Source of the DNA: a virus
Taxonomy: Duplodnaviria > Heunggongvirae > Uroviricota > Caudoviricetes
Length of the DNA: 8,508 nt
Strand: one strand, 5' to 3'
Virus record (IMG/VR): IMGVR_UViG_2541047956_000009
Position numbers and translations under genes: made by a program. Under the pieces are notes generated by a model. The model ran no database searches and was not told the origin of the DNA. It saw only the letters and a list, made by a program, of their open reading frames with translations. Of the stretch, positions 1 through 8,508 are shown piece by piece; positions within the stretch are counted from its first letter, which is position 1, and every line of letters starts with the position of its first letter.

Positions 1-2241
1 ACAGAGCTTGTGGAGGACACGCAGGCCATTGCCCGTTACGGTCGTAACGTCACGAAGATGGATGCCTTTGGCTGTACCAGTCGGGGGCAGGCACACCGAG
101 CCGGGCTGTGGCTGATTAAAACGGAACTGCTGGAAACGCAGACCGTGGATTTCAGCGTGGGCGCAGAAGGGCTTCGCCATGTGCCGGGCGATGTTATTGA
201 AATCTGCGATGATGACTATGCGGGTATCAGCATCGGCGGGCGCGTGCTGGCGGTGAACAGCCAGACCCGGACGCTGACGCTCGACCGTGAAATCACTCTG
301 CCATCCTCCGGTACCACGCTGATAAGCCTGGTTGACGGAAGCGGCAATCCGGTCAGCGTGGAGGTCCAGTCCGTCACCGACGGCGTGAAGGTAAAAGTGA
401 GCCGGGTTCCTGACGGCGTTGCCGGATACAGCGTGTGGGGGCTGAAGTTGCCGACGTTGCGCCAGCGCCTGTTCCGCTGCGTGAGTATCCGGGAGAACGA
501 TGACGGTACGTATGCCATCACCGCCGTGCAGCATGTACCGGAAAAAGAAGCCATCGTGGATAACGGGGCGCACTTTGACGGTGACCAGAGCGGCACGGTG
601 AATGGTGTCATGCCGCCAGCGGTGCAGCACCTGACCGCCGAAGTCACCGCAGACAGCGGGGAATATCAGGTGCTGGCGCGCTGGGACACGCCGAAGGTGG
701 TGAAGGGGGTGAGCTTTATGCTTCGCCTGACCGTGGCAGCGGATGACGGCAGTGAGCGGCTGGTCAGCACGGCCCGGACGACGGAAACCACATACCGCTT
801 CAGGCAACTGGCGCCAGGGAACTACAGGCTGACAGTCCGGGCGGCAAATGCCTGGGGACAGCAGGGCGATCCGGCGTCGGTATTGTTCCGGATTGCCGCA
901 CCGGCAGCGCCGTCGCGGATTGAGCTGACGCCGGGCTATTTTCAGATAACCGCCACGCCGCATCTTGCCGTTTATGATCCGACGGTACAGTTTGAATTCT
1001 GGTTCTCGGAAAAGCGGATTGCGGATATCAGGCAGGTTGAAACCACAGCCCGCTATCTTGGCACGGCGCTGTACTGGATAGCTGCCAGTATCAATATCAA
1101 GCCGGGCCATGATTATTATTTTTACATCCGCAGTGTGAACACCGTTGGCAAATCGGCATTCGTGGAGGCTGTTGGCCAGCCGAGTGATGATGCATCCGGC
1201 TATCTGGATTTTTTCAAAGGAGAGATAGGGAAAACCCATCTGGCTCAGGAGTTGTGGACGCAGATTGATAACGGTCAGCTTGCGCCTGACCTGGCGGAAA
1301 TCAGAACGTCCATCACGGATGTCAGTAATGAAATCACGCAGACCGTCAATAAGAAACTGGAAGACCAGAGTGCAGCGATCCAGCAGATACAGAAGGTTCA
1401 GGTTGATACAAATAATAACCTGAACAGCATGTGGGCTGTGAAGCTGCAGCAGATGCAGGACGGACGCCTTTATATCGCGGGTATTGGTGCCGGTATTGAA
1501 AACACCCCTGACGGCATGCAGAGTCAGGTGCTGCTGGCGGCAGACAGGATTGCGATGATTAATCCTGCGAATGGCAACACAAAGCCGATGTTTGTTGGTC
1601 AGGGCGATCAGATATTTATGAATGAAGTGTTCCTGAAATATCTGACGGCTCCCACCATTACCAGCGGCGGTAATCCTCCGGCATTTTCCCTGACACCGGA
1701 CGGGCGGCTGACGGCGAAAAATGCCGATATCAGCGGTAACGTGAATGCGAACTCCGGGACGCTCAACAACGTCACGATTAACGAGAACTGTCGGGTTCTG
1801 GGAAAACTGTCCGCGAACCAGATTGAAGGCGATCTCGTTAAAACAGTGGGCAAAGCTTTCCCCCGGGACTCCCGTGCACCGGAGCGGTGGCCATCAGGGA
1901 CCATTACCGTCAGGGTTTATGACGATCAGCCGTTTGACCGGCAGATTGTTATTCCGGCGGTGGCATTCAGCGGCGCTAAACATGAGAGAGAGCATACTGA
2001 TATTTACTCCTCATGCCGTCTGATAGTGCGGAAAAACGGTGCTGAAATTTATAACCGTACCGCGCTGGATAATACGCTGATTTACAGTGGCGTTATTGAT
2101 ATGCCTGCCGGTCACGGTCACATGACGCTGGAGTTTTCGGTGTCAGCATGGCTGGTAAATGACTGGTATCCCACAGCAAGTATCAGCGATTTGCTGGTTG
2201 TGGTGATGAAGAAAGCCACTGCAGGCATCACGATTAGCTGA
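1..2241 (+). CDS. J: Tail tip / host-specificity protein J, C-terminal ~746 aa (5' end outside window)
   Basis: Frame-1 ORF is open from base 1 (the listed GTG at 10 is an internal codon) to TGA at 2239-2241. The N-terminal part of the translation ([51 protein letters not shown]...) matches lambda gpJ as I recall it almost residue for residue; the C-terminal part is recognisably J-like but divergent. Confidence 0.93.
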
Positions 2242-2260
2242 ATTTTATAACCCAGATACG

Positions 2261-2287
2261 GGCGCCAGAAATGGCGCCTTTTTTATT
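2261..2287 (+). terminator. Intrinsic terminator downstream of J
   Basis: Perfect inverted repeat GGCGCC (2261-2266) / GGCGCC (2273-2278) with a 6-nt loop, followed directly by TTTTTTATT. Confidence 0.6.
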
Positions 2288-2308
2288 GCAGAAAAGCGAG
2301 AGGTAATT

Positions 2309-2908
2309 ATGCGTAAATTATGTGCTGTTATTCTGTCCGCAGTAGTCTGGCTGGTTGCCGCTGGTACGCCAGCGAGCGCAGCAGAGCATCAGTCCACACT
2401 AAGCGCCGGGTATCTTCAGACCCATACTGATATGCCAGGCAGCGATGACCTGAAGGGCATTAACGTGAAATACCGTTATGAATTTACGGACACGCTGGGG
2501 CTGGTGACGTCATTCAGCTATGCAGGAGACAAGAATCGCCAGCTTACCCGTTACAGCGATACCCGCAGGCATGAAGATTCCGTTCGTAACCGCTGGTTCA
2601 GCGTGATGGCGGGGCCATCTGTACGCGTGAATGAATGGTTCAGTGCTTATGCGATGGCAGGTGTGGCTTACAGCCGTGTTTCGACGTTCTCCGGGGATTA
2701 TCTCCGCGTAACTGACAACAAGGGGAAAACGCACGATGTGCTGACCGGAAGTGATGACGATCGCCACAGCAACACGTCTCTGGCGTGGGGAGCTGGCGTG
2801 CAGTTTAACCCGACCGAATCCGTGGCCATTGATATTGCTTATGAAGGCTCCGGCAGTGGCGACTGGCGCACTGACGGTTTCATCGTGGGTGTCGGTTATA
2901 AGTTCTGA
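2309..2908 (+). CDS. lom: Lom-family outer membrane beta-barrel protein (Ail/PagC/OmpX family)
   Basis: 199-aa ORF with a signal-peptide-like N-terminus ([35 protein letters not shown]...) and a C-terminal ...[10 protein letters not shown] ending in aromatic residue. Closely matches lambda Lom as recalled. GAGAGG Shine-Dalgarno 8 nt upstream of ATG 2309; position immediately after J as in lambda. Confidence 0.92.
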
Positions 2909-2962: not shown

Positions 2963-2972
2963 TGGAGTGGAT

Positions 2973-5330
2973 ATGGCAGCAGTAAAAATCTCAGGTGTGC
3001 TGAAAGATGGTGCGGGAAAACCAATACAGAACTGCACTATTCAACTGAAGGCAAAGCGTAACAGCACCACGGTACTGGTGAACACGGTGGCTTCTGAAAA
3101 TCCGGATGAAGCCGGACGTTACAGCATGGATGTTGAGTATGGCCAGTACAGCGTCACCCTGCTGGTTGAAGGTTTTCCGCCTTCACATGCCGGGACCATT
3201 ACCGTCTATGAAGGCTCCAGACCAGGTACGCTGAATGATTTTCTCGGTGCCATGACGGAAGAGGATGTCATGCCGGAGGCATTGCGTCGTTTTGAGGAAA
3301 TGGTGGAAGAAGCGGCACGCAACGCTGAAGCCGCCTCTCAGAGCGCAGCGGCGGCAAAGAAATCCGAAACTGCAGCGGCATCATCGAAGAACGCGGCGAA
3401 AACCTCAGAAACGAATGCAGCTAATAGTGCACAGGCGGCAGCGACCTCAAAGACTGCATCGGCAAACTCCGCGACAGCAGCCAAAAAATCAGAAACCAAC
3501 GCGAAAAATAGCGAGACAGCCGCAAAGACGAGCGAAACCAACGCAAAGTCCAGCCAGACGGCAGCGAAAACCAGCGAAACGAATGCCAAAGCCAGTGAAA
3601 CTGCGGCGAAAAATAGCCAGAATGCAGCAGCCGAAAGCGAGAGTGCGGCAGCTGGTTCTGCGACTTCAGCAGCTGGATCAGCAACTGCTGCGGCTAACAG
3701 CCAGAAAGCAGCGAAGACGAGCGAAACTAACGCAAAGTCCAGCCAGACGGCAGCGAAGACCAGCGAAACGAATGCCAAAGCCAGCGAAACTGCGGCGAAA
3801 AGCAGTCAGGATGCAGCAGCCCAAAGCGAGAGTGCCGCAGCTGGTTCTGCAACAGCGGCAGCTAATAGCCAAAAAGCTGCAAAAACCAGTGAAACTAACG
3901 CAAAGACGAGTGAAACAAAAGCAGCAGCTAGCGAGACAGAAGCAACGTCAGCCGCAACAAGAGCAGAGAATGCAGCCCGGATTGCAGAAGATGCCGCTGA
4001 TCCTGCTTCTGTCCCTCCGCTTCCTGATATCTGGCTACCCTTGAATGATTCTCTGGAAGCGATAACAGGGTATGCCCCGGGCTATAAAACAATAACCATC
4101 GGCAGTGATGAAATAACAATGCCTGTTAATGGCATATGCCAATTTAGCCGGGCTTCATCTGCAACGTATATTGATAAGTCCGGGCATATTACCGTGGCAG
4201 GGAATAACGTTCCTCGTTTTGAAAAATATGGTTTGCTGATAGAGAATCAGCGAACAAACATGTTCGTAAATAGTTTTAATCCTGATGCCTGGAATAAAAG
4301 CGGTGGTATATCTGTAACATCATCAACAGATGAATTTGAGTTTAAATATGGACGTTTCACGGTAGGAAGCGATATAGCAGGAACGACAACAGGGAGAAAT
4401 ATATGCACAGTTGCTGGTAACAAAGGCATAGATGTGACTGGCGATGATCAGTACAGTAAAGGTCCGTATGTTACCGCGTCGTTCAGGGTAAGAAGTGATC
4501 TCAATGTTCGCGCACGTATCCGTTTTGAACGGTATAACTCGGAAGGATACACCTTCCTTTGCGATGCCTATTTGTCATTACAGACCCATGAACTACAAAT
4601 TACTGGTGGCAATGCCCAGCTATTAACAGCAAACTTTGAAATCGATCCTGGTAGTGGATGGATATACTTTCAGGCAACACTGAAATGTCTGCCAGAATGG
4701 GGAATGGTTGGTACGCAGCTGCAAATTGCAGCCGACAGAGCTGTGGGGTCTTTTGCAACAGGTGACTGGATAGAAGTAACCACCCCGCAATTCGAGTATG
4801 GTGCTTGTGCAACTTCCTTCATCATAACGACAACAGAGCCAGCGACTCGTGCATCAGATTTATGTAAATTTCCGCTGATGAAAAATATGTATACCATGCC
4901 TTTTACGTTCATGGTGGAAGTCCATAAAAACTGGTTTATTTCTCATAATGCTGCACCGCGTGTCATTGATTCAGAAAATCACCAGTCCGGAGGCCCATTT
5001 ATTATGGGGTTTGGTTCTTCTGGAACTATTAGTCAGGACGGTTATTCGTATTGCGATATAGGCGGGGCTAACCGACGTGTATATGAATCATGCGGAGTAA
5101 GGGATCTCGTTATGGGATTCAGGGTTAAGGCTGACGGCATGACATGCTCATTTGCAAATAAGCATATAAGCACTGAAACAAAAACAGTATGGAAATATAT
5201 TCGTGAAGCAGCCGTGATTCGTATCGGGGGGCAAACGACGACAGGATTACGACACCTTAATGGTCATATAAAAAACCTCCGTTTCTGGAACAGAGCATTG
5301 TCAGATACGCAGCTTAAGGAATACGTATAA
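2973..5330 (+). CDS. stf: Side tail fibre protein (Stf-like): lambda-type N-terminus, Ala/Ser/Thr/Lys-rich repeat shaft, divergent C-terminal receptor-binding region
   Basis: N-terminus MAAVKISGVLKDGAGKPIQNCTIQLKAKRNSTTVLVNTVASENPDEAGRYSMDVEYGQYSV... matches the lambda Stf N-terminus as recalled. ATG at 2973 with GGAG 5 nt upstream is the likely start (the ORF track's 2967 is an upstream GTG). A long low-complexity AAKTSETNAK-type repeat region is followed by ~440 aa unlike lambda Stf, ending ...IKNLRFWNRALSDTQLKEYV, a motif I recognise from LamG/concanavalin-A-like lectin domains. Confidence 0.85.
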   Translation: MAAVKISGVLKDGAGKPIQNCTIQLKAKRNSTTVLVNTVASENPDEAGRYSMDVEYGQYSVTLLVEGFPPSHAGTITVYEGSRPGTLNDFLGAMTEEDVMPEALRRFEEMVEEAARNAEAASQSAAAAKKSETAAASSKNAAKTSETNAANSAQAAATSKTASANSATAAKKSETNAKNSETAAKTSETNAKSSQTAAKTSETNAKASETAAKNSQNAAAESESAAAGSATSAAGSATAAANSQKAAKTSETNAKSSQTAAKTSETNAKASETAAKSSQDAAAQSESAAAGSATAAANSQKAAKTSETNAKTSETKAAASETEATSAATRAENAARIAEDAADPASVPPLPDIWLPLNDSLEAITGYAPGYKTITIGSDEITMPVNGICQFSRASSATYIDKSGHITVAGNNVPRFEKYGLLIENQRTNMFVNSFNPDAWNKSGGISVTSSTDEFEFKYGRFTVGSDIAGTTTGRNICTVAGNKGIDVTGDDQYSKGPYVTASFRVRSDLNVRARIRFERYNSEGYTFLCDAYLSLQTHELQITGGNAQLLTANFEIDPGSGWIYFQATLKCLPEWGMVGTQLQIAADRAVGSFATGDWIEVTTPQFEYGACATSFIITTTEPATRASDLCKFPLMKNMYTMPFTFMVEVHKNWFISHNAAPRVIDSENHQSGGPFIMGFGSSGTISQDGYSYCDIGGANRRVYESCGVRDLVMGFRVKADGMTCSFANKHISTETKTVWKYIREAAVIRIGGQTTTGLRHLNGHIKNLRFWNRALSDTQLKEYV
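3525..3885 (+). repeat. Intragenic direct tandem duplication (~189 bp unit, second copy ~21 bp shorter) within stf
   Basis: The sequence from 3525 (aagacgagcgaaaccaacgcaaagtccagccagacggcagcgaaaaccagcgaaacgaatgccaaagccag...) recurs from 3714 (aagacgagcgaaactaacgcaaagtccagccagacggcagcgaagaccagcgaaacgaatgccaaagccag...) with few mismatches. Protein level: KTSETNAKSSQTAAKTSETNAKASETAAK...SESAAAGSAT...AANSQKAA occurs twice. A shorter degenerate SETNAK-type periodicity spans ~3340-3960. Confidence 0.75.
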
Positions 5331-5599
5331 TGCGGGATATAACATTACGATTCGATAACAGAGAACAGTTTAACGCAATTGTATATGACAGTGGCCTGTT
5401 CAGTCTTGAAGAAGAAAACGGGGTTCTTGTTGATGTTATTGGCTGCATTATCGATTACGAGGAGCCAGAAAACGAAAGATGTACAGGCATTGATCGCGGT
5501 GGTTTTTTCGTAAACATGAGGATTGTTGATAGCAGTAAAAACATATCTTCTTTAATGCCTTTCATTACGACAGATCAGCATGTAAGGACATGGGCTTAA
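5330..5599 (+). CDS. Hypothetical 89-aa acidic protein, translationally coupled to stf
   Basis: ATG at 5330-5332 overlaps the stf TAA stop (5328-5330) in the sequence ATAATG; AAGGA 9 nt upstream. AT-rich. No family recognised and no resemblance to lambda Tfa. Confidence 0.5.
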   Translation: MRDITLRFDNREQFNAIVYDSGLFSLEEENGVLVDVIGCIIDYEEPENERCTGIDRGGFFVNMRIVDSSKNISSLMPFITTDQHVRTWA

Positions 5600-5611: not shown

Positions 5612-6652
5612 ATGGTTACAAAAACAGTAATTCCTGATGATATCAAAACGCTAAAATCCGACGTTAGCAAATTAAAAAACGATCAAGGGAGCTACGCAAC
5701 AAAATCATATGTAGACAATAAAACAACATGGAATAGTTATTGCAATGTAATCTATGATCAAAAGACATTGCCGACCACTGGAACTATATTTAGCGGTAAG
5801 ATTCACTTGTCAAATAAGACAGGAGAAACCGAAAACGCTTATAGTGAGATGTACACCAGAAAAAATATTGACGGTACAAAAGATACAATGACAAGGATTG
5901 TCACACACAATGGAACAAAAGGTATCTTTTGGGATTTTAGCGATCTTTACGGCGGAACATTAATTTTTCCAGGCAGTGATGGTTACCTTAAGATGGGGAA
6001 CTGTCTCATGTCGTATGGTGTGCGGGGAAGTAACGCGCTTATTAAGTTTGACTGCACAGACACATTACAAATCAAATATGCTAATCACGGGTCGACCATG
6101 ACACTAAACACGCAAGGTACGGCGTATTCTGGTGTGTCGACGTTATTATGGGGAAATTCCAGTCGTCCAGTTGTTTATGAAATTAGGGATGATGGCGGGC
6201 TTTTTTTGTTTTATGCACAAAGGAACCCAGATAAAACCTATCAGCTTGAGATAAACGGGCCATGCAAGGCAACATCATTCGACCAGGTGTCGGACAGAGA
6301 TCTTAAAGAAAACATTCGGGTTATTGATAATGCCACTGAACGCATCAGATTAATGAATGGGTATACTTACCGTCTCAAGTCTAATGGTATGCCTTATGCT
6401 GGCGTTATTGCGCAAGAGGCACTTAATGCAATCCCTGAATCAGTTGGTAGCACAATAAAGTACAAGAGCGGGGACAATGGGTCTGATGGAGAAGAGGGAG
6501 AAAGATACTATACCGTCGATTACTCAGGCGTAACGGGTTTGCTTGTTCAGGTAGCCAGAGAGTCAGACGACAGAATAACAGCACTGGAAGAAGAAAACGC
6601 AGAATTAAAACAAAGATTATCTGCAATTGAGGCGGCGCTTGCGTCCAAATAA
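5612..6652 (+). CDS. Tail-fibre-like protein with C-terminal intramolecular chaperone (peptidase S74-type) autoproteolytic domain
   Basis: 346-aa ORF, GGAG 7 nt upstream of ATG 5612. C-terminal ~120 aa (...FDQVSDRDLKENIRVIDNATERIRLMNGYTYRLKSNG...AGVIAQEALNAIPESV...DDRITALEEENAELKQRLSAIEAAL) has the S-D-x-x-x-K-E-N-I signature and terminal helical segment typical of self-cleaving chaperone domains of endosialidases and L-shaped tail fibres. The N-terminal ~225 aa is Thr/Gly/Asn/Tyr-rich and of unknown fold. Confidence 0.75.
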   Translation: MVTKTVIPDDIKTLKSDVSKLKNDQGSYATKSYVDNKTTWNSYCNVIYDQKTLPTTGTIFSGKIHLSNKTGETENAYSEMYTRKNIDGTKDTMTRIVTHNGTKGIFWDFSDLYGGTLIFPGSDGYLKMGNCLMSYGVRGSNALIKFDCTDTLQIKYANHGSTMTLNTQGTAYSGVSTLLWGNSSRPVVYEIRDDGGLFLFYAQRNPDKTYQLEINGPCKATSFDQVSDRDLKENIRVIDNATERIRLMNGYTYRLKSNGMPYAGVIAQEALNAIPESVGSTIKYKSGDNGSDGEEGERYYTVDYSGVTGLLVQVARESDDRITALEEENAELKQRLSAIEAALASK

Positions 6653-6999: not shown

Positions 7000-7033
7000 G
7001 CCGCAGTAACTTGTCATGATAGGATACTGCGGC
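7000..7033 (-). terminator. Hairpin terminator, likely ending the DinI-like transcript
   Basis: 9-bp inverted repeat GCCGCAGTA (7000-7008) / TACTGCGGC (7025-7033) with a 16-nt loop. On the - strand the hairpin is followed by a U-rich tract (+ strand 6985-6999 is A-rich). No T-run follows on the + strand, so termination of the + strand membrane gene here would be weak. Confidence 0.45.
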
Positions 7034-7100
7034 TGGCTGGTTAACTTTCGATAGTGCGAGTATTGAATGATTTCCAGCCGTTACCGATTTTACGTGTTAA

Positions 7101-7349
7101 TTAGTGAACAAACCACTCGTCAGCAGACTCCCAGGTATCTTTCAGAGTTTCCTGAACAAAAGTTTTAGCTGAATCTTTATCGGCGGTGCGCGTAACAGAA
7201 AGGCCATCGTTGCTGGTGGCTTTTACGATCACCTCTACATCGTCATAACGTTTACTGATGCGTCGGGTTAATTCTTCCTTTAACGCATCCACAGCACCGG
7301 TTGGCATTTTAGTCATTTTTTCTTTGGCTATGCAGATTTCAATACGCAT
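7101..7349 (-). CDS. DinI-family protein (SOS-inducible modulator of RecA, prophage paralogue)
   Basis: 82-aa product [82 protein letters not shown] aligns along its length with E. coli DinI as recalled (MRIE..IAK...P.GA.DAL..EL.RRI...LSV...KD...QET..WESAD.WFV). GAGGGA Shine-Dalgarno (revcomp of 7355-7360) 5 nt upstream of the ATG. Confidence 0.88.
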
Positions 7350-7362
7350 AAAAGTCCCTCTA

Positions 7363-7414
7363 TACTGTGTTTGTATACAGTGTTATTTTTAACTGTATGG
7401 ATAAACAGTGTCAA
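7363..7414 (-). promoter_or_regulatory. SOS-type promoter of the DinI-like gene: two LexA boxes plus sigma70-like -35/-10
   Basis: Box 1 at 7363-7382 (TACTGTGTTTGTATACAGTG) and box 2 at 7391-7410 (AACTGTATGGATAAACAGTG) both fit CTGT-N8-ACAG exactly. On the - strand a perfect TTGACA (revcomp of 7409-7414) overlaps box 2 and is followed after 17-18 nt by TAAAAAT as a candidate -10, with box 1 over the expected transcription start. Confidence 0.7.
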
Positions 7415-8508
7415 GAGGTCTTATTTCTGCTCTTTTGGAGCTCTTCAAAACGATTATGTAAAGATTTCGGATACAGTTCGGTATATACCTGCCATAGCAC
7501 GTTTAATGAACGATGCCCTGTAACTTGGGCGACTTCCTCAATACTAAAACCAGCCTCAAATAAGCGACTTGCCCCTTCTCTACGCAAATCATGGTATCGC
7601 AGATCTTTAATACCTAATTTGCTTCTTACCCTCTGAAATCCCGCAGTAACAGAAGTGCTGTTATATGGAAAAATGAATTCCGATTTTTGGGGCTGTCGTT
7701 GGACGATATCCCAGGCTTCCCCAAGCAAGGCTACTTTCATGTGGTTGCCTTCCTTTTTGCGTGGATCTTTCCTGTCTCTTACGAGTATAGATTTTTGTTC
7801 CTGGTCGAGATCTTCCCATCGTAACCGGCATACTTCTCCGATTCGCATACAGGACCACACAGAAAATTTGAGGATATCAACGAACGGAATTTTTGAGCAT
7901 TTATGTGTAGATCGTTGTTGAAGACCTTCAATGAGCATGTCCAGTTCATCAGATGCCGGTCTACGATTACGACGGTTTGATTTACCAATCAAACCAAGTT
8001 TAAGTAGATATGGACGAGCACTTTTCGCCGGGTTTGATGTGTAATTAATTCCGTATACAGGTTTGGCCGCATCCAGAACACTGCCAAGATAACTAACATC
8101 GTGGCTGACTGTTGCTGGACCTGCACCAGCGTTGTTTCTTAGCCTACAATGTTCAATTACGTCATTTTCTGTCAGTTCGGATAGTTTGATCGCGGAGATG
8201 TCACTATCCATAAGCAGTTCCAGCACATATCTTTTAGTACGACCTGCTTTACCTCCGGCATTTGGGTCATTTAAATATTTGTGTAGTAAGTCACGGACTG
8301 TAAGTCCGTCAACTGCATTTGATGATGGAATGCCATATAGATCTAATTCCATCACTTTCTGTGTACCCCATGTTTTGGCATGGGCATGTTTAGGGAATGT
8401 TTTGCTTTCCCTGTAAGTGATAACACCTTTTTCTTTGATAATCACATTACAGCGATAGCGTGGTGTGCCATCGGATTTTAGTCGTTTCTCTATGTTATAG
8501 TACGCCAT
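7411..8508 (-). CDS. int: Tyrosine-type site-specific integrase (phage integrase family)
   Basis: 365-aa ORF on the - strand whose ATG is the last three bases of the window (it may extend beyond). C-terminal catalytic region has the conserved layout: R in ...CMRIGEVCRLRWEDL, HxxR in RYHDLRREGASRL, and the probable nucleophilic Tyr in GHRSLNVLWQVYTELY. Arm-binding-like N-terminal region. Confidence 0.9.
   Translation of the reverse strand: MAYYNIEKRLKSDGTPRYRCNVIIKEKGVITYRESKTFPKHAHAKTWGTQKVMELDLYGIPSSNAVDGLTVRDLLHKYLNDPNAGGKAGRTKRYVLELLMDSDISAIKLSELTENDVIEHCRLRNNAGAGPATVSHDVSYLGSVLDAAKPVYGINYTSNPAKSARPYLLKLGLIGKSNRRNRRPASDELDMLIEGLQQRSTHKCSKIPFVDILKFSVWSCMRIGEVCRLRWEDLDQEQKSILVRDRKDPRKKEGNHMKVALLGEAWDIVQRQPQKSEFIFPYNSTSVTAGFQRVRSKLGIKDLRYHDLRREGASRLFEAGFSIEEVAQVTGHRSLNVLWQVYTELYPKSLHNRFEELQKSRNKTS

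Follow-up and report, generated by a model that had tools for sequence, protein, structure and literature searches.

The window, a stretch of 8,508 nucleotides of tailed-phage DNA, opens with the 3' part of a lambdoid tail-tip (central tail fibre) gene J, which is followed by a terminator-like hairpin with a T-run, an Ail/Lom gene and an stf-like gene (Table 1). The last 746 codons of J are present, open from the first nucleotide to the stop codon at 2239-2241 with no frameshift; the window edge truncates the gene at its 5' end and the N-terminal hub lies outside. The fragment aligns to residues 414-1132 of lambda J (NC_001416, 1132 aa). The Pfam domains Phage-tail_3, Ig_J, Ig_J_second, Phage_Tail_Tip and Ig_GpJ_C, all scoring well above the curated cut-offs, follow each other in the order expected for a lambda-type J (hub, two FNIII/Ig domains, fibre and C-terminal Ig-like receptor-binding domain, RBD). 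Homology to structurally solved J proteins extends over the whole length: phmmer against the PDB yielded 8iyk_J (E = 0, 1198 bits), 9wca (E = 1e-185) and 8xcj (E = 2e-165), and the homology search used for the domain map yielded E-values of 2.7e-117 for 9wca and 7e-97 for 8xcj. The gene order is that expected around a lambda-type J (I, J, lom, stf and tail fibre accessory genes), and phage 21 has an annotated terminator in the same position between J and lom. In the closest genome, EFF60, J is annotated as an intact phage tail tip protein of 1159 aa within a complete-looking row of tail genes, in which tape measure, M, L, K and I-like genes are followed by J, lom and stf.

Table 1. Features of the J region in the window (aa numbers refer to the 746-residue fragment; nt numbers to the window)
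Feature	Position (nt)	Strand	Basis or context
Lambdoid tail-tip / central tail fibre gene J, 3' part	1-2241	+	uninterrupted frame-1 ORF
Conserved body: end of hub domains, FNIII-1, most of FNIII-2	1-1176	+	377/392 aa as in lambda; Pfam
FNIII-1 (Ig_J)	589-903	+	Pfam
FNIII-2 (Ig_J_second)	907-1215	+	Pfam
Recombination junction relative to lambda, FNIII-2 / α-helical shaft boundary	1126-1187	+	mismatch positions
α-helical shaft (AHS), long type	1183-1440	+	alignment gaps, motif spacing
Central straight fibre, β-prism (Phage_Tail_Tip)	1375-1761	+	Pfam PF09327 at aa 459-587
Conserved prism block (41 residues)	1615-1737	+	80-90% identity to lambda
Receptor-specificity module, aa 580-746	1738-2238	+	portion exchanged in chimera 1A2
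Ig-like RBD proper (Ig_GpJ_C), aa 616-746	1846-2238	+	Pfam
Predicted RBD loop 1, aa 619-632 (with a 12-residue segment)	1855-1896	+	model residues 40-53, non-strand
Predicted RBD loop 2, aa 663-666	1987-1998	+	between strands, model residues 84-87
Predicted RBD loop 3, aa 702-706 (PAGHG)	2104-2118	+	model residues 123-127
Predicted RBD loop 4, aa 719-730	2155-2190	+	model residues 140-151
Terminator-like hairpin with T-run, between J and lom	2260-2289	+	consensus scan
Ail/Lom gene	2309-2908		downstream of J
stf-like gene with phage_tail_N	2967-5330		downstream of lom

Lambda J (P03749; PDB 8iyk, 8xck, 8xcj) belongs to the same family and shares the domain order and the trimeric fibre architecture, but the similarity to it changes abruptly along the fragment. 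Before residue 393, 377 of 392 residues (96%) were identical to lambda, while the corresponding number for the remainder was 177 of 354 (50%; Fisher exact p = 4e-52). In bins of 30 residues, the identity was 0.90-1.00 up to aa 390, fell to 0.63, 0.07, 0.30 and 0.47 in the bins that follow, recovered to 0.73-0.90 in a block (lambda 926-985) that contains a conserved 20-residue segment, and was 0.30-0.63 in the last 146 residues. An earlier, sequence-only reading had described J as near-identical to lambda upstream and as diverging in the C-terminal region from about nt 1190, with patchy similarity and a few conserved blocks. The pairwise alignment agrees with this description: there is no uniformly high identity through the C-terminus, identity recovers in the block that had been quoted, DMPAG is kept, and the start of the divergence was placed correctly to within about 20-60 nt, mismatches in the DNA being dense from about nt 1170. 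The upstream near-identity holds for the protein, but at the DNA level the identity is about 92-97% (dS 0.24). The body segments of phage 21, ev203 and PhiR55_1 fall in the same range (92-97% DNA identity for all four phages) and are equally close to the window or closer than that of lambda. VT1-Sakai is strongly different in the hub and FNIII-1, with 47-83% DNA identity before nt 888.

The last long run of DNA identity to lambda covers nt 1126-1169. Since the dS values against lambda jump from 0.24 upstream (dN 0.018) to about 1.9-2.5 in the 3' part, we conclude that the 3' part of J was acquired by recombination. Rapid evolution in place was ruled out as the source of the divergence because the synonymous sites are saturated too; nothing in the window points to a diversity-generating mechanism, and the pattern is that of block-wise recombination. 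The junction corresponds to lambda residue about 806/807, at the transition from the rigid hub to the flexible central fibre, and in the structure that cryo-EM gave for the free lambda tip, only J residues 1-807 were resolved (PMC12617516). Unlike lambda, phage 21 is near-identical to the window across the entire junction interval.

The divergent part is itself composed of two modules. The first comprises a long α-helical shaft and an upper β-prism of the type found in phage 21, VT1-Sakai and PhiR55_1. Relative to lambda, the shaft carries a net insertion of 28 residues, with alignment gaps at aa 423-443 and 447-453 (nt 1267-1329 and 1339-1359), and GYLDFFKG and MWAVK lie 77 residues apart in phage 21 and the window compared with 49 in lambda and h434. 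Of 88 shaft residues, 86-88 were identical to phage 21, ev203 and PhiR55_1 and 28 (about 32%) to lambda. The inserted segment may be helical: a single-sequence AF2 model that is poor overall (pLDDT 53) contains one long helix at aa 427-486 (pLDDT 78-87 for aa 435-474). In a crude heptad count of the insertion, hydrophobic residues occupied 6 of the 9 a/d positions. Up to about nt 1660, the DNA for the long shaft and upper prism of phage 21 and ev203 is 95-100% identical to that of the window.

The second module consists of the lower prism and the Ig-like RBD, and is 98-99% identical to VT1-Sakai (Sp15), the PPompW prophages, 2G7b and PhiR55_1. The two modules meet at the conserved prism block (the crossover block, lambda 926-964, is conserved in lambda J), which serves as both a natural and an engineered crossover point. 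Thus, 2G7b switches from lambda-like similarity to the window (58-72%) to 97-100% identity at about nt 1608, and the fusion point of engineered J proteins, lambda aa 964, is the end of this block (PMC11338833). The same mosaic as in the window was observed over the visible length of PhiR55_1 J (PV340571; 1159 aa), with 96.8% DNA identity in nt 1-2300, R663 and D721 as in the window, and only three amino-acid differences after aa 393 (V639I, I520V and T744S). Taken together, nt 1-2241 represent the distal two-thirds of a functional-looking lambdoid J assembled from modules of different ancestry.

Within the receptor-specificity module, 165-166 of 167 residues were identical to VT1-Sakai, PhiR55_1 and 2G7b compared with 77 of 168 for lambda. 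The alignment to these three is free of gaps, so that the four distal RBD loops have equal lengths. VT1-Sakai differs at two of the 167 positions (98.8% identity), both in the RBD: R663K and D721N. A model of the RBD was all-β (pLDDT 85), and its top Foldseek matches were 9wca and 9wcb, which represent A8 gpJ without and with OmpC, and 8xck and 8xcj, which represent lambda J with and without LamB. The closest solved structure was A8 gpJ (62% identity, TMq 0.78-0.82), including 9wcb, in which it is bound to the EDL933 OmpC 'G17' (PDB).

Loops 1, 2 and 4 predicted from this model coincide with specificity hotspots of J, which have been located to lambda residues 1012, 1048/1049 and 1107 (PMC6646904). 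Loop 1, which covers the equivalent of lambda 1012, exceeds that of the A8/phage 21 class by 4 residues. R663 in loop 2 (codon 1987-1989), equivalent to lambda 1048, is K in 1A2 and VT1-Sakai. D721 in loop 4 (codon 2161-2163), equivalent to lambda D1107, is N in 1A2 and VT1-Sakai and G in 2G7b; in lambda, residue 1107 is a natural hotspot and critical for the gain of OmpF function (PMC6646904). Sites 721 (D/N/G) and 663 (R/K/Q/G) are the most polymorphic within this RBD class, in which positions 663-668 and, in the region of loop 3, 705 and 707 also vary. Among the natural variants at the sites equivalent to lambda 1048/1107, several are common, and the R663/D721 combination is one of these.

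The receptor assignment builds on a chimera, 1A2, in which lambda J was exchanged after residue 964 (Brödel et al., Nature 2024, PMC11338833). 1A2 and its natural source class, J of VT1-Sakai, the PPompW prophages and long-tailed Stx1a/Stx2a phages, carry after TAKNADISG a 167-residue module that is 98.8% identical to that of the window (165/167 for VT1-Sakai), with the same length and loops. A direct DNA alignment of the window with 1A2 gave 69% identity, the exchanged part differing at most third codon positions, and was replaced by a frameshift-tolerant protein-to-DNA alignment, in which 152 of 158 readable codons were identical. The 1A2 sequence was machine-read from a supplementary PDF and contains some reading errors; over the region compared, 11 codons could not be read. 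Two of the six mismatches (R663K and D721N) represent the natural VT1-Sakai allele while the other four adjoin reading errors, including an impossible in-frame stop, and R663K and D721N are thus the only credible differences.

Particles carrying 1A2 delivered to 5% of wild-type MG1655 cells (LamB+, K-12 OmpC) compared with 98% for lambda, transduced 98% of ΔlamB ΔompC cells provided with EDL933 OmpC, and accepted 20 of 23 natural OmpC variants, excluding that of K-12, independently of LamB (PMC11338833). In a single source-data sheet, that of Extended Data Fig. 2 panel C, 1A2 is listed at 2% on EDL933 OmpC, but the sheet repeats the numbers of panel B and disagrees with three further data sets of the same paper, and the value is probably a copy error. 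Judged by sequence identity, these results support the view that the RBD class of the window binds the trimeric porin OmpC, in most of its natural alleles except that of K-12, rather than LamB. The suggestion of the sequence-only reading that the phage probably uses a receptor other than LamB thereby gains support from the near-identity to the tested 1A2 module, the phenotype of 1A2 and the structural match of the RBD. The assignment would extend to the R663/D721 allele of the window because of its 98.8% identity to the tested module, although the 1A2 phenotype was measured on the short shaft and upper prism of lambda and the window has the long shaft. In the phage records with this RBD class, the host named is E. 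coli C or ECOR13 and in no case K-12, which is circumstantially consistent with failure on K-12 OmpC.

Since residues 663 and 721 differ from 1A2 at documented hotspots, the spectrum of OmpC alleles accepted could differ. It is conceivable, if unlikely, that R663 and D721 retain the fold and the docking to porins but shift the specificity to other OmpC alleles, possibly including that of K-12, or to another trimeric porin such as OmpF, PhoE or OmpN. Both residues are placed in distal loops by the model and align to the natural hotspots at lambda 1048 and 1107, the latter being required for the use of OmpF by lambda (PMC6646904). Their position as the most polymorphic sites of the class suggests selection on receptor-allele matching, and the related RBDs of A8 and 1A2 already differ in the OmpC alleles they accept (PMC11338833). 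On the other hand, the R-to-K change is conservative and the D-to-N change alters a single charge in an otherwise identical domain of 146 residues, the acceptance of 20 of 23 very diverse OmpC alleles by 1A2 indicates a tolerant recognition, and the shift of lambda to a different receptor protein needed at least four substitutions (PMC6646904). We give a marginally lower chance to the related idea that the R663/D721 combination and the 28-residue longer shaft jointly tune the set of OmpC alleles, or the choice of porin, by which ejection is triggered. If so, the micro-polymorphism in the dominant RBD class would be a natural record of an arms race over OmpC alleles, and loop variants could predict the strain-level host range of lambdoid prophages.

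There is a small chance that J, although truly a mosaic, is a relic in a defective prophage and no longer serves in host recognition. Defective lambdoid prophages are numerous, J of VT1-Sakai, with the same RBD, is split by mutation, and only the 3' two-thirds of the gene are visible here. However, all 746 codons are open with neither frameshift nor stop, J is intact within the complete-looking tail gene row of EFF60, and PhiR55_1, which carries the same allele, forms plaques. Furthermore, dN/dS is low in comparisons with close relatives (dN 0.006 and dS 0.039 for the VT1-Sakai RBD; dN 0.009-0.011 for the phage 21 body and shaft). We therefore regard the prophage as presumably functional in this respect. 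That the divergent C-terminus still uses LamB, as a drifted sequence or a different solution for the same receptor, is the least probable reading: several Drexlerviridae GpJ tips unlike that of lambda do use LamB, and unrelated-looking receptor-binding proteins can share a receptor, but the near-identical 1A2 module reached only 5% of LamB+ MG1655 (98% for lambda) and transduced ΔlamB cells with a permissive OmpC, the saturated dS values against lambda indicate a different lineage rather than drift, and with 62 of 147 RBD residues identical to lambda J 985-1132 (dS 1.9) the domain falls outside the LamB-binding class of lambda.

Comparisons with other J proteins place the window tip among several classes. 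The RBDs of A8 gpJ (9wca/9wcb) and phage 21/ev203 have the Ig-like fold and the OmpC receptor in common with the window class and are 61-66% identical to it, but their loop 1 is shorter and their loop 2 carries five additional residues (NFNSN); K-12 OmpC is accepted by A8 as well. In phage 434 (lambda h434 hybrids), lambda is converted from the use of LamB to that of OmpC when the C-terminus of J is exchanged, by the same principle, but the 434 RBD is 44% identical to that of the window (about 42-45% for the LamB-binding RBD of lambda), has longer loops and is borne on a short shaft, and it is a third, independent OmpC-binding class. J of Gifsy-1 binds OmpC and has a C-terminus that is 18% identical to that of lambda. 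We found no receptor data for PhiR55_1, the only paper mentioning it (PMC13190303) giving none, and no papers on 2G7b or Lambda_ev203, which by appearance are natural analogues of the chimera. A preprint reporting a receptor screen of 255 phages was uninformative here, as its subject is GpJ tips of the Drexlerviridae type and the lambda tip is explicitly omitted from its alignments.

The reading that best explains these data, and that we hold to be quite probable as a whole, is a mosaic J with an OmpC-type tip and the following mode of triggering. The body (hub and FNIII domains), which must fit the phage's own tail proteins, is of the lambda/phage 21 type, and the central fibre from the FNIII-2/shaft junction onward was gained by homologous recombination from other lambdoid lineages. 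This fibre begins with a longer α-helical shaft and an upper β-prism of the type seen in phage 21/VT1-Sakai and continues, after the conserved block ending in NADISG, with the lower prism and Ig-like RBD of the VT1-Sakai/1A2 class. By analogy with the solved complexes of lambda J-LamB and A8 gpJ-OmpC, each RBD of the trimer would insert its four distal loops into the porin trimer at the extracellular face, which would spread the RBD bases and twist the β-prism. The helical shaft may then flip and partly refold, the FNIII domains would be released and the hub would open for DNA ejection, as in the triggering mechanism of Ge & Wang 2024 (PMC11101478).

That the C-terminus of J is exchanged as a module has been recognised since the lambda h434 hybrids. 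The tip of the window J is an ordinary instance of such module swapping, of a kind already characterised. The pattern of a conserved body and a hypervariable tip has been quantified across 1,207 homologs (PMC6646904). Of the complete E. coli genomes, about 62% contain the RBD class, and it has already been tested functionally and used in engineered therapeutic particles (1A2, EB003). For annotation, the prophage of the window can be labelled as carrying a tail tip of the OmpC type (1A2/VT1-Sakai class) rather than the LamB type, with residues 663 and 721 flagged as the most likely sites of an influence on the range of OmpC alleles accepted.

Aligned with authentic lambda J (NC_001416, 1132 aa), the frame-1 protein covered lambda residues 414-1132 with a net insertion of 28 residues. 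In 30-residue bins, identity was 0.90-1.00 through window residue 390, then dropped to 0.63, 0.07, 0.30 and 0.47, and was back at 0.73-0.90 over a conserved block (lambda 926-985), of which the sequence-only reading had quoted 20 residues; the last 146 residues yielded 0.30-0.63, with DMPAG kept. Identical residues numbered 377 of 392 before position 393 and 177 of 354 after it (Fisher p = 4e-52), and the DNA mismatch density placed the junction at about nt 1126-1187. This agrees with the sequence-only reading, in which J was near-identical to lambda upstream and patchily similar from about nt 1190, with conserved blocks persisting; identity was not uniform through the C-terminus. The upstream part, 96% identical to lambda in protein, was only about 92-97% identical in DNA and no nearer to lambda than to phage 21, ev203 or PhiR55_1. 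The gene concerned is a lambdoid J, of which the window holds only the 3' two-thirds. In the closest complete genome, E. coli EFF60 (97.4% identity across 98% of the window), its counterpart is intact (1159 aa, annotated 'phage tail tip protein') and belongs to a prophage adjoining dusA, among tail genes in the normal lambdoid order.

Genes of the window and domains (Pfam), segments and mosaic blocks of J; dS and dN are relative to lambda, aa positions are window residues
Feature	Position	Strand	Description
J 3' part	nt 1-2241, stop 2239-2241	+	frame 1 open, 746 codons
Ig_J	aa 197-301
Ig_J_second	aa 303-405
Phage_Tail_Tip	aa 459-587
Ig_GpJ_C	aa 616-746		'C-terminal receptor binding domain'
Body	aa 1-392		dS 0.24, dN 0.018
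Shaft + upper prism	aa 393-536		dS 2.46, dN 0.37
Conserved block	aa 537-600		dS 0.74, dN 0.10
RBD	aa 601-746		dS 1.88, dN 0.58
Block 1	nt 1 to ~1187		lambda/phage 21/PhiR55_1 type; VT1-Sakai joins only from nt 888
Block 2	nt ~1188-1607		phage 21/ev203/VT1-Sakai/PhiR55_1 type, 90-100%; lambda 23-75%
Block 3	nt ~1608-2241		VT1-Sakai/2G7b/PhiR55_1 type, 93-100%, mostly 98-100%
Ail/Lom gene	nt 2309-2908		after J
stf-like side tail fibre gene	nt 2967-5330		787 aa, phage_tail_N domain
Small ORF	nt 5330-5599		89 aa, no family hit
Second tail-fibre gene	nt 5612-6652		346 aa, Peptidase_S74 intramolecular chaperone domain at aa 227-278
DinI-like gene		-	beyond second tail-fibre gene
Tyrosine integrase gene	nt 7411-8508	-	complete; window end is exactly the start codon

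We calculated dS and dN against lambda by the Nei-Gojobori method for four segments. Since synonymous sites are near saturation in the divergent parts, these come from another lineage, and the divergence of J is best attributed to recombination, not fast evolution. When identity to six reference J genes was profiled in units of 60 nt, three mosaic blocks emerged; within the third, the divergence of phage 21 and ev203 is patchy from about nt 1668 and becomes strong from about nt 1848. PhiR55_1 (PV340571) shows the same mosaic throughout, with 96.8% DNA identity to the window. The J protein of phage 2G7b (1131 aa) instead joins a lambda-type shaft and upper prism to a receptor-binding domain (RBD) of the window type, identical at 145 of 146 residues, with the crossover at about window nt 1608; a literature search found no publication on this phage. 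The annotation splits the VT1-Sakai J gene, with the same RBD (L002, 420-3892), into two overlapping fragments 'truncated by a mutation', and the tail tip of the Sakai Stx1 prophage is probably non-functional despite the conserved RBD sequence.

Lambda J consists of hub domains, FNIII-1, FNIII-2, an α-helical shaft, a β-sheet prism and an Ig-like RBD, four loops of which contact the receptor (Ge & Wang 2024, PMC11101478). Only residues 1-807 are resolved by cryo-EM of the free lambda tip (PMC12617516), and the start of the divergence, at lambda residue 806/807, is the exact boundary of the rigid tip complex and the flexible fibre. The window shaft is 28 residues longer than that of lambda or h434 (77 versus 49 from GYLDFFKG to MWAVK), a length shared with phage 21, ev203, PhiR55_1 and VT1-Sakai; in a single-sequence AF2 model, poor overall, the inserted stretch is part of one long helix. 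An AF2 model of residues 580-746 with 39 homologs was confident (pLDDT 85) and all-β. Its top Foldseek matches in the PDB were 9wca and 9wcb (TMq 0.82 and 0.78, 62% identity), the fibre of the engineered gpJ chimera A8 closed and bound to OmpC G17 of EDL933, and 8xck and 8xcj (TMq 0.83 and 0.79, 45-46% identity), the lambda fibre closed and bound to LamB.

Replacement of lambda J after residue 964 by natural prophage J C-termini has yielded the OmpC-using chimeras A8 and 1A2, whose sequences are given in the supplement (Brödel et al., Nature 2024, PMC11338833). Because our 1A2 sequence was a machine reading of the PDF, with bases dropped and added, and most third codon positions in the swapped part differ from the window (DNA identity 69%), we used a protein-to-DNA alignment tolerant of frameshifts. 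The window residue was encoded at 152 of the 158 readable 1A2 codons in the swapped module. At two of the six mismatches, R663K and D721N, 1A2 has precisely what the natural VT1-Sakai allele has, while the other four adjoin reading errors, one an in-frame stop; 1A2 is therefore a VT1-Sakai-type allele, from which the window differs at 2 of 167 positions. A8, in contrast, shares only 61% of the module residues with the window and is nearest to phage 21 (82%). The 2G7b J is effectively a natural counterpart of the 1A2 chimera.

Delivery into wild-type MG1655 (LamB+, K-12 OmpC) was 5% by 1A2 versus 98% by lambda and 96% by A8, and 1A2 reached 98% in MG1655 with EDL933 OmpC (PMC11338833). At top MOI in a ΔlamB ΔompC host, 1A2 delivered at least 76% via 20 of 23 natural OmpC alleles, failing only with G1 (K-12), G2 and G40 (PMC11338833). 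In the source data of that study (supplementary file 10), Extended Data Fig. 2 panel C duplicates for 1A2 and A8 on OmpC-EDL933 the values of panel B (OmpC-MG1655) and clashes with the main text as well as with three further data sheets; the deposited panel C numbers are probably a copy error. The anti-STEC particle EB003 carries the same module as 1A2 (bioRxiv 10.1101/2025.02.28.640725). The suggestion that the receptor is probably not LamB is thus supported by a near-identical tested module, and going by sequence similarity the window J likely uses OmpC, in most natural alleles but not that of K-12. The C-terminal 168 residues of phage 21 and ev203 J are 82% identical to A8 gpJ, an OmpC binder (PDB 9wcb), suggesting that the second common RBD class, classical phage 21 included, is also OmpC-directed.

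Confidence that the OmpC spectrum equals that of 1A2 is limited mainly by sites 663 and 721. The lambda counterparts of window R663 and D721 are V1048 and D1107; in the RBD model both sites fall in loops predicted between strands. Residue 1107 was obligatory in the laboratory shift of lambda to OmpF (PMC6646904), a study that analysed 1,207 natural J homologs and in which 1048 and 1107 are both hotspots of natural variation (Maddamsetti et al. 2018). Among cluster representatives, variation within the RBD class was concentrated at residues 663-668, 705-708 and 718-721. The pair at 663/721 was R/G in 12 representatives, R/D in 11, R/N in nine, K/N in six and Q/G in four, so the R/D combination of the window, also found in PhiR55_1, is common.

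The gene order points to a dusA-integrating lambdoid prophage in which, contrary to the lambda arrangement, int occupies the tail-fibre end; in EFF60 the integrase gene directly adjoins dusA (L007, 13411-15634). With the Peptidase_S74 fibre and the 89-aa ORF, its side-fibre tip system differs from lambda stf-tfa. The stf-like gene contains nested 21/42/189-nt tandem repeats at about nt 3473-3923, encoding an Ala/Ser/Thr-rich region of the (S/T)ETNAK type, where the best genome matches split in two pieces. Terminator-like GC-rich hairpins with T-runs lie right after J (2260-2289) and right after lom (2935-2965), and lom, bracketed by them, is possibly a separate transcription unit. In EFF60, the annotation includes a short pseudogene fragment of a 'capsid protein' that separates dinI from the tail-fibre accessory ORF (window 7024-7104; L007 13024-13104), which suggests a remnant of earlier recombination at this end of the prophage.

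The literature already describes the phenomenon, the allele class and its function. Of 5,426 complete E. coli genomes, 3,364 contained the RBD DNA (nt 1800-2241) at ≥80% coverage, and 2,232 records had a best match of ≥95% identity; for the shaft-to-RBD DNA (nt 1000-2241), 2,846 complete E. coli genomes reached ≥80% coverage and 86 records had a best match of ≥99% identity. In the phage collection, 57 records carried the class at ≥90% protein identity, including VT1-Sakai, PPompW prophages and many long-tailed Stx1a/Stx2a phages, whereas other tip classes were about 59-64% (phage 21/A8 type), 42.5% (lambda) and 41% (h434) identical to the window RBD. Among the J tips of E. coli, the RBD class of the window is probably the most frequent.
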